Origin: an uncultured Candidatus Saccharibacteria bacterium | GTDB lineage: Bacteria > Patescibacteriota > Saccharimonadia > Saccharimonadales > Saccharimonadaceae | NCBI GenBank assembly: GCA_964557445.1 | Contig: CAZLAF010000002.1 | Location: 9,695-73,694 of the forward strand | Direction: 5' to 3' | DNA length: 64,000 nucleotides | Part shown: one piece after another, positions 58,904 to 61,977 of the stretch | How positions within the stretch are numbered: position 1 is the stretch's first letter | Layout: the number at the start of each line of letters is the position of its first letter | Made by a program: the position numbers and the translations under genes | Notes under the pieces: generated by a model | Told to the model about the DNA's origin: nothing | What the model saw: the letters and a program-made list of their open reading frames with translations, nothing else | The model's database searches: none

Positions 58904-60064
58904 ATGTTTTTTATTGCACTAAAAAGCACTGTTTCAAACTGGATAGCAAGCCTAAATCCAGATAATCGATCTAGGCTGATCGCTCTCGACTTACTGCGTG
59001 GGCTTTTTTTAGTTATTATCTTCGCCGATCACTTAGCCTACCAACCATCTCTTTTCTTTCAGCTAGCCACAAATAATAGCGCCTTGCTTGCTTCTGCTGC
59101 AGAGGGCTTCTTTGTCATATCGGGCATCCTGGTGGGATACATATACGGACCAAAAATCATAAAACAGCCTCTCGCTGTCGCTAAAAAGCTCTGGAAGAGA
59201 GCAGGTACCCTCTATCTACTCACTATTGTCTTTACTTTACTCTACACGCTATGGGCATACCTACTACCAGATGGATATCCACGAGCTGTGCCATATCAAG
59301 GCTCCGCTATGGAGATTTTATTTAAAACCATTACATTACAGTACCAGTTCGGCTGGGCCGACTTCCTAGGCAGATATGCTGTTTTCATGGCAGTATCACC
59401 GTTGGTCTTGTGGCTCATAGCAAAGGGCTACGTATGGCTCGTAGCGCTCTTAAGTGTACTAGTGTGGTACTTTTACGCTTTTACGCCCATCCTTCAGTTC
59501 TATACCGCTTGGCAGTTGATATTTATGTTTGGAATTATTATCGGATTCTACCTTCCGTCTATTGAAGCAGCTGTGAAAAGAATACCTCAAAAAATACGAC
59601 AAGTCAGTTGGTGGAGTATTGTGACTCTAGGTGTCGGGACCTATATTGTGAGTGTTGCCTGGATCGTCATTATTGCCCCTCATGTGCTATCGATACTTTG
59701 GATGCCACACGAAATAATCCCTTATTTTGACAAAAATTCTCTTGCAAAAGGTAGAATTGCCGTTGGTGTCCTATGGTTCCTTACTCTATATCTGCTATTT
59801 CGTAGATACGAAAAATGGATTAGCTCAGCTACCAAAGGTTCGCTTCTGATCTTAGGTAAGGCTTCATTGTTTGTCTATTGTCTCCAAGCATTCATTATCT
59901 TTAGCGTCGATGTCTTTGTTCCAGCTCCAGAAAACAGCCCTATTATACTCAATACATTGGTTGGTGTTGTTGGAATATGGGTTGTTTATATAATCACAAA
60001 ACATAGAGCATCAATAAAGCAGTGGGTGCAGCAAATGTGGCGTGCTCTGCTACACTCAAAGTAG
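58904..60064 (+). CDS. OpgC-family polytopic membrane acyltransferase (glycan O-succinyl/acyl transferase-like)
   Basis: ALDLLRGLFLVIIFADHL...AAEGFFVISG resembles the OpgC pattern RG-x-A-x-x-x-I-F-x-D-H ... AE-x-FVF-ISG. About 10 TM helices. Confidence 0.55.
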   Translation: MFFIALKSTVSNWIASLNPDNRSRLIALDLLRGLFLVIIFADHLAYQPSLFFQLATNNSALLASAAEGFFVISGILVGYIYGPKIIKQPLAVAKKLWKRAGTLYLLTIVFTLLYTLWAYLLPDGYPRAVPYQGSAMEILFKTITLQYQFGWADFLGRYAVFMAVSPLVLWLIAKGYVWLVALLSVLVWYFYAFTPILQFYTAWQLIFMFGIIIGFYLPSIEAAVKRIPQKIRQVSWWSIVTLGVGTYIVSVAWIVIIAPHVLSILWMPHEIIPYFDKNSLAKGRIAVGVLWFLTLYLLFRRYEKWISSATKGSLLILGKASLFVYCLQAFIIFSVDVFVPAPENSPIILNTLVGVVGIWVVYIITKHRASIKQWVQQMWRALLHSK

Positions 60065-61120
60065 ATGAAACTCCTCGAATACGAAGCTAAACAAATCCTT
60101 ACCGCACATGGTGTGCCGACGCCACGCAGCTACATAGCAGGTGAGTCGGCCGAGTTTTTGCCAGCTGTCCTCAAGTCGCAGGTACCTGTCGGTGGTCGTG
60201 GTAAAGCCGGAGGCGTACTAGTGGTGCAAAGCGCCGATGAGTATATAGCTGCACGTCAAAATATCCTTACCCTCGACATCAAAGGCTTTACCGCCAATAC
60301 AGTACTTGCTGAAGAATTGATTACTATCGACCGCGAGCTCTATTTGTCTGTCCTAATAGACAAGCCAACAGCCACTATAAAACTGATGGCGCATAGCAAG
60401 GGCGGCATAGAGGTTGAAGATCAGACAGATTTTAGAAAGTGGGAAATGAGGGATGACAAATGGGACGAGCTCGGCCAAGACCTATCAGACTACTTTGACC
60501 TACCCGAACAAACTTTTGCACTGCAAGATTTGGTTGAAAACCTTTACAAGATTTTTACCAAAAACGACGCGCTACTACTCGAGATAAATCCACTCATCCT
60601 GACAAGCGCTGGCAAACTGATAGCAGGTGATTGCAAAATGGAGCTCGACGACGCGGCGGCGTTTCGCCACCCAGAATGGCGATTTGAAGCAGAGAAGTCG
60701 GAGGTCAATTTTGTCACTCTCGACCCTCAGGGTGTCGTGGCAACCGTAGCTAATGGCGCCGGCCTGGCCATGGCGACAGTCGATGCCGTAGCAGATAGCG
60801 GACTAACACCAGCAAACTTTCTCGATATTGGTGGTGGCGCCAATGAAGCGAGTATTTTAGCAGCATTTGAGCGTCTCATGGAATACCCAAACCTACAGGT
60901 GATTCTTATCAATATCTTTGCTGGCATCACCCGCTGCGACGAAGTAGCACGAGCCATCGTGGCTGCGCGCGCCAAGATCACCAATCTTCCACCGCTCACC
61001 GTTCGCCTGGCTGGCACCAATTATCAAGAAGCAGCCGCCATACTCGCCGAGCACAATATCGCCCTCCAGCCGAGTCTTGCCGATGCCATAGCAAACGCCA
61101 AACAGGAGGTATCAATATGA
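60065..61120 (+). CDS. sucC: succinyl-CoA synthetase beta subunit-like (ATP-grasp) protein
   Basis: MKLLEYEAKQIL, GGRGKAGGV, LEINPL, NGAGLAMAT and FLDIGGGA. Shorter (351 aa) than typical SucC. It starts at the nucleotide after the upstream stop codon. Confidence 0.8.
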   Translation: MKLLEYEAKQILTAHGVPTPRSYIAGESAEFLPAVLKSQVPVGGRGKAGGVLVVQSADEYIAARQNILTLDIKGFTANTVLAEELITIDRELYLSVLIDKPTATIKLMAHSKGGIEVEDQTDFRKWEMRDDKWDELGQDLSDYFDLPEQTFALQDLVENLYKIFTKNDALLLEINPLILTSAGKLIAGDCKMELDDAAAFRHPEWRFEAEKSEVNFVTLDPQGVVATVANGAGLAMATVDAVADSGLTPANFLDIGGGANEASILAAFERLMEYPNLQVILINIFAGITRCDEVARAIVAARAKITNLPPLTVRLAGTNYQEAAAILAEHNIALQPSLADAIANAKQEVSI

Positions 61121-61977
61121 CCGAAGAACTACTCACTGGCAAAAACGTGATCGTACAGGGTATCACTGGCAGCCATGGTGCGTTTCACACCAAAGCAATG
61201 CTCGATACCGGCACGCACATTGTTGCTGGCACGTCACCAAATAAATCTGGTGAGAAAATTCATGGTGTGCCTGTATATGGTTCGATTGCAGATATACAAA
61301 CTGACATGGCTGTGGATATTTCAGTTATATTTGTACCAGCCGCACATGCCAAAGGCGCCATACTCGAAGCAATACAAGCAAATATTCCACTTATCGTCTG
61401 TATAACTGAAGGTATACCTATTCATGATATGTTGCAAATATCACAACATTTAGAAAAATCACAGAGTAGGCTAATCGGACCTAACTGCCCAGGTATACTG
61501 CTTCCTGGTAACAACAAGCTCGGTATTATACCTGCCAATCTCGCCCTCCCTGGTACTGCGGCTATCGTAAGTCGCAGCGGCACGCTCACCTACGAAGCCA
61601 TGGCGGGGCTCACTCAGCGCGGTATCGGACAAAAATATATTATTGGTATTGGTGGCGACCCTATTAAGGGTTCGGATTTTGTGGACTTTTTGAAATTGTT
61701 TCAAAACGACCCAGAAGTAGACAGGATTATTCTTATTGGTGAAATCGGCGGTGTCAGCGAATATACGGCTGCCGATTATATCGCCAAACACATCACCAAA
61801 CCTGTCTATGCGTACGTAACTGGCCATCACGCGCCAGAAGGCGTACAACTGGGACATGCAGGTGCAATCCTTGGTAGCGAGAACGAATCAGCCCACGCCA
61901 AGACCGACTATCTTGCCAAATCCGGCGCGACCACGGCAACCAACCTAGTGTCGCTTATACAGAGTATTAAATCGTAA
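61117..61977 (+). CDS. sucD: succinyl-CoA synthetase alpha subunit
   Basis: GITGSHGAFH, SRSGTLTYEA and GHAGAI (phospho-His). ATGA overlap with sucC. Confidence 0.88.
   Translation: MTEELLTGKNVIVQGITGSHGAFHTKAMLDTGTHIVAGTSPNKSGEKIHGVPVYGSIADIQTDMAVDISVIFVPAAHAKGAILEAIQANIPLIVCITEGIPIHDMLQISQHLEKSQSRLIGPNCPGILLPGNNKLGIIPANLALPGTAAIVSRSGTLTYEAMAGLTQRGIGQKYIIGIGGDPIKGSDFVDFLKLFQNDPEVDRIILIGEIGGVSEYTAADYIAKHITKPVYAYVTGHHAPEGVQLGHAGAILGSENESAHAKTDYLAKSGATTATNLVSLIQSIKS

Follow-up and report, generated by a model that had tools for sequence, protein, structure and literature searches.

Succinate-CoA ligase genes in a glycan operon of a Saccharibacterium lacking the tricarboxylic acid cycle: a probable acyl-donor supply for an OpgC-type acyltransferase

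In Escherichia coli, OpgC is the succinyltransferase of osmoregulated periplasmic glucans, and is thought to use succinyl-coenzyme A (succinyl-CoA) as donor (PMC3818809). In the acyltransferase superfamily to which OpgC belongs, the acyl-CoA is understood to be admitted from the cytosol, and the acyl group to be passed to an extracytosolic acceptor (PMC12423673). Both the transferase family and the O-succinylation of glycans, as a type of modification, are already known. An orphan "ADP-forming succinate-CoA ligase" was listed earlier in groundwater Saccharibacteria lacking the tricarboxylic acid (TCA) cycle, and no role was proposed for it (PMC7786006). Here we analyse a stretch of 64,000 nucleotides, the window from here on, from an uncultured Candidatus Saccharibacteria bacterium (assembly GCA_964557445.1, contig CAZLAF010000002.1, positions 9,695 to 73,694 of the forward strand), in which sucC and sucD, the genes of a succinyl-CoA synthetase, directly follow a gene encoding an OpgC-like membrane acyltransferase. 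Since sucCD sits in a glycan operon of a genome devoid of the TCA cycle, and occurs only in the company of an OpgC-type acyltransferase, the only succinyl-CoA synthetase of this genome most likely has one purpose, the provision of succinyl groups for surface decoration. In the literature searched, we found no TCA-less organism described in which a succinyl-CoA synthetase, embedded in an operon, is kept as a dedicated donor supply, and no description of a strict co-distribution of sucCD and OpgC. The three genes are:

58904..60064, + strand: OpgC-like multi-pass membrane acyltransferase, 386 amino acids, an extra, sucCD-adjacent paralogue (PF10129, 3e-40; PF01757, 9.6e-14)
60065..61120, + strand: SucC-like beta subunit of succinate-CoA ligase, 351 amino acids, with ATP-grasp_2 and Ligase_CoA domains (PF08442, 3.6e-33; PF00549, 1.3e-22)
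61117..61977, + strand: SucD, alpha subunit of succinate-CoA ligase, 286 amino acids, with CoA-binding domain and phosphohistidine loop (NF004230, TIGR01019)

The map of open reading frames (ORFs) agrees exactly with the positions given to these genes in a previous, sequence-only reading of the window, which had also taken the membrane protein for an OpgC-type acyltransferase. The assignment is borne out by the profiles. The product of 58904-60064 matches OpgC_C (PF10129) at 138.7 bits, the cut-off being 21.4, over profile positions 1-354 of 358, and Acyl_transf_3 (PF01757) at 51.6 bits (cut-off 31). A Kyte-Doolittle scan returned 12 overlapping peaks, corresponding to about 9-10 hydrophobic segments, as in a multi-pass membrane protein, and gave none for SucC. 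All 25 OpgC homologues compared from Saccharibacteria have R32-X10-H43 without variation, and likewise R24, D29, G33, E67, S73 and R99; apart from R32 and H43, 28 positions are nearly invariant in this set. We take R-X10-H in the first transmembrane helix to be the motif of the AT3 (acyltransferase-3) superfamily, including the catalytic histidine.

Both ligase subunits are readily recognized. SucC has both Pfam domains expected of a beta subunit, finds its best NCBIfam match in the beta-subunit model for ADP-forming succinate-CoA ligase (NF001913, 296.7 bits), and aligns end to end with solved beta subunits of succinyl-CoA synthetases (1.2e-54 to Thermus thermophilus 3ufx_B). It retains the GGRGKAGGV loop, EINPL...D, NGAGLAMAT and FLDIGGGA, and the Glu, Asn and Asp of the ATP-grasp site are aligned with those of 3ufx_B and 6mgg_B. 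The loop, and the Glu, Asn and Asp of EINPL...D, are the catalytic and nucleotide-site residues of the beta subunit, as the paper title of Fraser et al. (2002) also indicates. SucD exceeds the cut-off of the alpha-subunit equivalog (NF004230, 358 bits against 336; also TIGR01019, 356.7 bits, and PF02629, 4.9e-27), and its translation holds the GHAGA phosphohistidine loop, GEIGG, GPNCPG and SRSGTLTYE. Catalytic motifs are intact in SucC, SucD and OpgC alike.

SucC is about 35 amino acids shorter than the beta subunit of T. thermophilus, because of three loop deletions and a shorter C-terminus, and its 351 amino acids had been read as consistent with specialisation. This part of the sequence-only reading has to be abandoned. 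SucC proteins measure 345-391 amino acids across the family, mostly 350-360, and the nearest outside relatives found are likewise short (matches of 1059-1140 nucleotides); being common to the whole family, shortness says nothing about specialisation. These nearest non-Saccharibacteria proteins are found in Bathyarchaeia, Methanoculleus/Methanomicrobiales and Elusimicrobia, at 36-40% identity and with the common motif ...GGITRCDEVA (L121-L150), in a search which was seeded by query peptides and is hence biased. The similarity hints at an archaeal-type origin of Saccharibacteria sucCD. In several relatives (G101, L001:8949-11066; G276; G083; G224) SucC and SucD are fused into one polypeptide by a linker of about 65 amino acids. 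The fusions have open frames of 707-795 amino acids and ORFs of 675-794 amino acids, and in G101 both halves are intact by Pfam. In two loci, L049 (G204) and L081, sucC and sucD are separated by an unassigned ORF of 486-489 amino acids in the same orientation.

The host genome (G000; 941 kb in three contigs, 99.9% complete) carries a single sucCD pair. Related genomes come from environmental Saccharibacteria (Ca. Microsaccharimonas, GW2011_GWC2_44_17 and UBA metagenome-assembled genomes). The whole genome was searched for the enzymes named below, along with control genomes, which gave matches every time. No match was found in it for citrate synthase, for the flavoprotein of succinate dehydrogenase/fumarate reductase (SDH/FRD), for pyruvate or 2-oxoglutarate:ferredoxin oxidoreductase (POR/KGOR), for the E2 component of 2-oxoacid dehydrogenases, or for DapD. 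Matches to FAD_binding_2 were rejected as SDH/FRD candidates, as they cover only 40 residues of a FAD motif, in a Pyr_redox_2 disulfide oxidoreductase and in a protein of the flavin amine-oxidase family (PF01593). With these enzymes absent, SucCD is not part of the TCA cycle or of a branch of it, and the possibility that a complete cycle makes sucCD a housekeeping pair falls away. The usual sources of succinyl-CoA which were searched for (oxoglutarate dehydrogenase/oxidoreductase) are missing too, as is the one consumer tested; a role of SucCD as supplier for DapD was accordingly rejected in G000.

The distribution of the two gene types across the class was followed by Ligase_CoA and OpgC_C profile searches in a sample of 401 genomes. 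Of these, 44 have the two-gene sucCD pair, all belonging to the family of the window and spread over 17 genera, and 83 have OpgC_C. All 44 sucCD-positive genomes host OpgC_C, which is present in only 2 of the 23 sucCD-negative family members tested (Fisher p = 2e-15, without correction for phylogeny). A tree of 44 genomes, built on YidC and Jag, requires at least 7 changes of state for sucCD. Among 6 pairs of independent descent, OpgC goes along with sucCD in about 5, does not differ in about 1, and in none goes the opposite way. The relation is one-directional, sucCD implying OpgC and not the reverse, which is what one would predict for a SucCD whose only use is to serve the transferase.

In other families the Ligase_CoA profile also hits single ORFs of about 600 amino acids. 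These were rejected as SucCD variants, being ATP-citrate-lyase-like, with Citrate_bind and Citrate_synt domains, an identity which rests on one inspected example from the window's own family, G205. There (L034:8350-11245) a 376-amino acid protein combining ATP-grasp and Citrate_bind accompanies a 600-amino acid protein combining Ligase_CoA and Citrate_synt. The ORF size of about 600 amino acids recurs in the genomes with single Ligase_CoA matches, and outside the family of the window none of these carries OpgC. The pair could be a source of acetyl-CoA in a group said to lack acetyl-CoA metabolism.

The trio is embedded in one tightly packed six-gene operon, running from 57886 to about 64034 and divergent from the genes of a Wzm/Wzt glycan exporter. 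The other genes of the region are:

55810..57057, - strand: Wzt, ATPase of an ATP-binding cassette (ABC) transporter with a Wzt_C glycan-binding domain, glycan exporter (PF00005, 2.8e-23; PF14524, 5.9e-12)
57041..57865, - strand: Wzm, ABC-2 permease of the glycan exporter (PF01061, 1.2e-15)
57886..58902, + strand: family 2 glycosyltransferase (GT2), first gene of the operon (PF13641, 1.2e-19; PF00535, 1.6e-18)
62002..62943, + strand: GT2 of the polyprenyl-phosphate-sugar synthase type, PgfS/ArnC/GtrB-like (PF00535, 7.5e-34)
62940..64000, + strand, extending 34 bases beyond the window: family 4 glycosyltransferase (GT4), last gene of the operon, full ORF of 364 amino acids (PF00534, 1.6e-28)

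Glycosyltransferase genes thus lie on both flanks of the trio, as had been noticed earlier (GT2 at 57886-58902; GT2 at 62002-62943 and GT4 from 62940 onward). The junctions, read from the sequence, are equally tight. The TAA stop of the first GT2 and the ATG of OpgC are separated by a single base; OpgC ends at 60064 and sucC starts at 60065, its ATG abutting the TAG stop; sucC and sucD overlap by ATGA, with AGGAGG just before. The last two junctions are those already described in the sequence-only reading. A gap of 24 bp separates sucD from the polyprenyl-phosphate GT2, which in turn overlaps the GT4 gene by ATGA. In the genome sequence the GT4 is followed by convergent jag-yidC-rnpA, and then by dnaA-dnaN-recF. 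An ABC-2 permease and a Wzt_C-bearing ATPase beside glycosyltransferases (PF01061, PF00005, PF14524) denote a Wzm/Wzt glycan pathway; the permease matches the galactan export permease model Wzm/RfbD (NF050109) at 2.5e-19 and 69.8 bits, under the cut-off of 380. The GT2 at 62002-62943 is hit by the models for PgfS (NF047588, 7e-86, 288 bits, cut-off 500) and ArnC (NF007986, 2.3e-54), in both cases below the equivalog cut-off. Between the start codons of wzm (-) and of the first GT2 (+), which are divergent, there are only 20 bp (57866-57885); each operon must hence have a promoter reaching into coding sequence, unless the start annotation is in error.

Gene neighbourhoods in relatives were compared by clustering the ORFs of fetched loci. 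In a first type of locus (locus A) the order is Wzt-Wzm, then GT2 or GT4, SucC, SucD, polyprenyl-phosphate GT2, GtrA and GT4, followed by jag-yidC-rnpA and dnaA. Locus A harbours the sucCD pair in 48 of 50 loci from named species; in a further set of 26 sucCD-positive loci, about 23 conform. Wzm/Wzt is kept beside sucCD in relatives, and orthologues of the GT2 at 57886-58902 (GT2b) are found immediately 5' of SucC in many of them. Among the ten relatives inspected first, all had sucCD in a glycan-locus context, and eight had the polyprenyl-phosphate GT2 3' of SucD, as did most of those inspected later. A second type (locus B) has the order clp-murT-gatD-bcp-OpgC, then, in convergent (tail-to-tail) orientation, a PMT_2 glycosyltransferase of the GT-C type with GtrA, continuing to RNase Y. 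In most sucCD-positive relatives OpgC is found away from sucCD, beside the GT-C glycosyltransferase and GtrA.

Direct adjacency of OpgC and sucC is accordingly exceptional, being found in 2 of the 44 sampled sucCD-positive genomes, G000 and G101. The order OpgC-SucC-SucD was found in 11 of the 50 named species loci, plus G101, which is possibly one of the 11, and the loci with this order show the highest SucC identity to the window (61-70%). Recurring in 11 of 50 species loci, the arrangement is more than chance; as a family-wide conserved feature it was rejected, being limited to a sub-clade. The expected conservation of the OpgC-sucCD association therefore stands for co-occurrence (44 of 44), for joint absence in close relatives, and for adjacency in the sub-clade, and does not stand for adjacency in the family at large. 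Loci with OpgC inserted before sucC (L071-L082), and likewise that of the window, have no GtrA between the polyprenyl-phosphate GT2 and the GT4; L083-L116, by contrast, have it. One locus with the inserted OpgC, L077 (SEAL01000003.1), is labelled "Chloroflexi bacterium", yet is a typical Saccharibacteria Wzt-Wzm-GT2-OpgC-SucC-SucD locus, with 62% SucC identity; the contig has probably been mis-binned.

Relatives lacking sucCD, four of them in the genus of the window, have an intact locus A from which precisely sucCD is gone, at its place between the GT2 and the polyprenyl-phosphate GT2. Similarly, locus B of G164 is intact but for OpgC, absent precisely from its site between bcp and the GT-C gene. 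G164 retains GT-C, GtrA and the polyprenyl-phosphate GT2, and lacks both sucCD and OpgC; the pair thus behaves as a unit distinct from its neighbours. In three negative genomes of the window's own genus (G213, G240 and G309) a recognisable GT-C is missing as well as OpgC, and in G077 the OpgC/GT-C position of locus B is taken by an unassigned ORF of 509 amino acids. Pseudogene remnants of sucCD or OpgC were searched for in the sucCD-negative relatives, and none was found, so that loss and gain are not directly distinguishable.

The OpgC gene of the operon is not the only one in G000. An ancestral copy resides at C1:549992-551128, scores 137.7 bits against PF10129, and is 33% identical to the copy at 58904-60064. 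The latter and the sucCD-adjacent OpgC of G101 form a clade with 100/100 support, which falls outside the clade of the ancestral-locus copies, those of the same genus included. The adjacent OpgC should hence be an old paralogue, or the result of transfer within the phylum. Directly upstream of the ancestral OpgC, all relatives inspected have MurT/GatD and a Bcp peroxiredoxin (C1:547340-549345 in G000), the three being identified by sequence appearance only. MurT/GatD functions in the isoglutamine amidation of lipid II.

The sequence-only reading had seen in the trio a dedicated donor-supply module, to be dropped if the membrane protein failed to match OpgC or acyltransferase profiles, if a full TCA cycle made sucCD housekeeping, or if the adjacency was conserved nowhere. 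None of this is the case, the proposal is supported on genomic grounds, and we regard it as probable that the module supplies acyl donors for a cell-envelope glycan in a Saccharibacterium devoid of the TCA cycle. We infer that SucCD works in the direction of synthesis, and would ligate scavenged succinate to CoA in the cytoplasm, spending a nucleoside triphosphate. The two OpgC-type acyltransferases (58904-60064 and C1:549992-551128) would take succinyl-CoA at the cytoplasmic face, and hand its succinyl group across the membrane to a glycan on the outer side. This glycan is likely the polysaccharide which the neighbouring GT2 and GT4 enzymes would build and Wzm/Wzt export, and which may receive side-chain sugars outside the cell from the system made of polyprenyl-phosphate GT2, GtrA and GT-C. 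The outcome would be anionic O-succinyl esters on a wall glycan. For most members of the family, the companion of sucCD is the polyprenyl-phosphate GT2, usually followed by GtrA, and that of OpgC is GT-C, which suggests that one and the same polymer may receive both the succinyl groups and the side-chain sugars.

Several data weigh against this proposal. Succinyl esters in Saccharibacteria are a prediction from genomes. No succinate source was identified in G000 by the searches for citrate synthase, SDH/FRD, POR/KGOR and E2, and CoaE (dephospho-CoA kinase) found no match in this 99.9% complete genome; CoA itself is thus probably scavenged, and succinate and CoA must both be imported. In 6 genomes, from two genus groups, sucCD lies between pyrG and argS, outside the Wzm/Wzt locus. 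OpgC is found without sucCD in 39 of the 83 OpgC-positive genomes, five of which (G116, G125, G167, G288 and G380) belong to the family of the window, so that OpgC-type enzymes do not generally need SucCD, and another donor is possible. The phylogeny-aware sign test gives p ~0.06, a suggestive value. Moreover, SucC stays below the cut-offs of the beta-subunit equivalogs (NF001913, 296.7 against 370; TIGR01016, 283.6 against 375.55 bits), and carries INIFAGITRC, a clade-wide change of Gly to Ala in the canonical IFGGI loop. This loop of the C-terminal domain we presume to be part of the succinate site, supplying backbone amides. IFAGIT occurs in nearly all Saccharibacteria SucC, a few deep-branching copies keeping GG, which is also retained in Bathyarchaeia, Methanoculleus, Elusimicrobia and the enzymes in the PDB. 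The change leaves room for an altered acid specificity.

The architecture could thus be the one proposed, and the acid another: a SucCD-like ligase would activate malate, another dicarboxylate or a short acid, and OpgC would transfer that acyl group. The low score of SucC, which also matches the malate-CoA ligase beta model at 201.3 bits, the departure of its loop from the (F/L)GGI of canonical and nearest archaeal-type enzymes, and the missing succinate source would all fit. Yet each subunit has its best match in a succinate-CoA ligase model, and the score of SucD lies above the equivalog cut-off. To our knowledge, other characterised members of PF10129 are succinyltransferases as well, and two independent families point to one and the same acyl group. 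The functionally studied OpgC of E. coli is a succinyltransferase (PMC3818809). On balance a different acid seems unlikely. A change of acceptor is a further possibility, raised by murT/gatD beside the ancestral OpgC: peptidoglycan, and not a polysaccharide, might be succinylated. This would alter the acceptor, not the logic of the module.

One may also argue that SucCD supplies a cytoplasmic step of glycan or nucleotide-sugar synthesis, catalyzed by some other enzyme of the locus, and that OpgC is a separate, co-travelling decorator, for example an O-acetyltransferase. Family-wide, sucCD is indeed linked physically to GT2/GT4 and to the polyprenyl-phosphate GT2, not to OpgC, and the 39 genomes with OpgC and no sucCD fit this explanation too. 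However, no soluble acyltransferase is conserved beside sucCD, and an ORF of 182 amino acids found in some loci resides in sucCD-negative relatives as well, and is absent from the window. In addition, GT and GT-C genes persist after the loss of sucCD in G164, G116 and G125, whereas OpgC has disappeared along with sucCD from 21 of the 23 family members tested that lack sucCD, G164 among them. We hold this explanation to be improbable. The chances look slimmer still for SucCD as a metabolic remnant, either forming ATP from imported succinyl-CoA or taking part in general CoA-thioester metabolism, with its position and the co-occurrence with OpgC being accidental. Listing of the orphan ligase without a role in reconstructions of TCA-less Saccharibacteria (PMC7786006), and a phylogeny-aware test short of formal significance, are compatible with a remnant. 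Against it, neither a source of succinyl-CoA nor another consumer was found in G000 (POR/KGOR, E2 and DapD searches), and close relatives with the same lifestyle are entirely without sucCD, which is therefore not core metabolism. That sucCD keeps its position inside a glycan operon with translational coupling in 48 of 50 species loci, and co-occurs with OpgC in 44 of 44 genomes, is not easily put down to accident.

Saccharibacteria, like the other Patescibacteria, live on host bacteria to which they are attached, and very little is known of the surface chemistry in these groups. The link between sucCD, OpgC and a glycan gives the orphan ligase a concrete, testable job. If donor supply is its function, the wall glycan of some species should carry succinyl esters, and with them negative charge, which should be absent in close relatives, and these species should depend on external succinate and CoA. 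The case would be a clean one of an enzyme of central metabolism retained only as donor-supply step for envelope decoration. Much more tentatively, a single environmental family of Saccharibacteria may keep one TCA enzyme, possibly derived from archaea, only for decorating the wall with anionic succinyl groups from scavenged succinate and CoA, in place of the charge of teichoic acid-type polymers; repeated joint loss would then reflect surface variation imposed by host attachment or phages.

Comparison with E. coli OpgC (MdoC) and homologues reveals a full-length PF10129 protein with the same stand-alone multi-pass membrane architecture, a presumed cytoplasmic succinyl-CoA donor and a likely extracytoplasmic glycan acceptor. 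The host differs, being a Saccharibacterium, presumably monoderm and without a periplasm, and so does the likely acceptor, an ABC-exported wall polysaccharide in place of osmoregulated periplasmic/cyclic glucans. In proteobacteria the TCA cycle furnishes the succinyl-CoA; in the present case the transferase is accompanied by a SucCD probably dedicated to it, and in this clade the two are coupled translationally. ExoH of Sinorhizobium and, as proposed, IcaC of staphylococci are likewise membrane acyltransferases which move an acyl-CoA-derived group onto a polysaccharide (PMC12423673). Unlike the organism studied here, their hosts have a TCA cycle, and the family is in our case OpgC_C rather than the classic Acyl_transf_3. 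We know of no sucCD genes within the polysaccharide loci of those hosts, and none surfaced in literature searches.

With canonical SucCD, such as that of E. coli (1jkj, 2scu) and of T. thermophilus (3ufx), the pair described here has in common alpha and beta subunits, domain order, phosphohistidine loop, and the Glu, Asn and Asp of the ATP-grasp site. It differs by the lack of a TCA context, the shorter beta subunit, IFAGIT in place of IFGGI, the location in a glycan operon, and the fusion of the subunits in some relatives. Finally, a polyprenyl-phosphate GT2 after SucD, and GtrA plus a PMT_2 GT-C enzyme beside the ancestral OpgC, recall the three-component glycosylation systems exemplified by GtrA/GtrB/GtrX, PgfS of Streptococcus mutans and ArnC/ArnT. 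Unlike in those systems, the parts are split over two loci, sucCD residing with the GT2 and OpgC with the GT-C enzyme.

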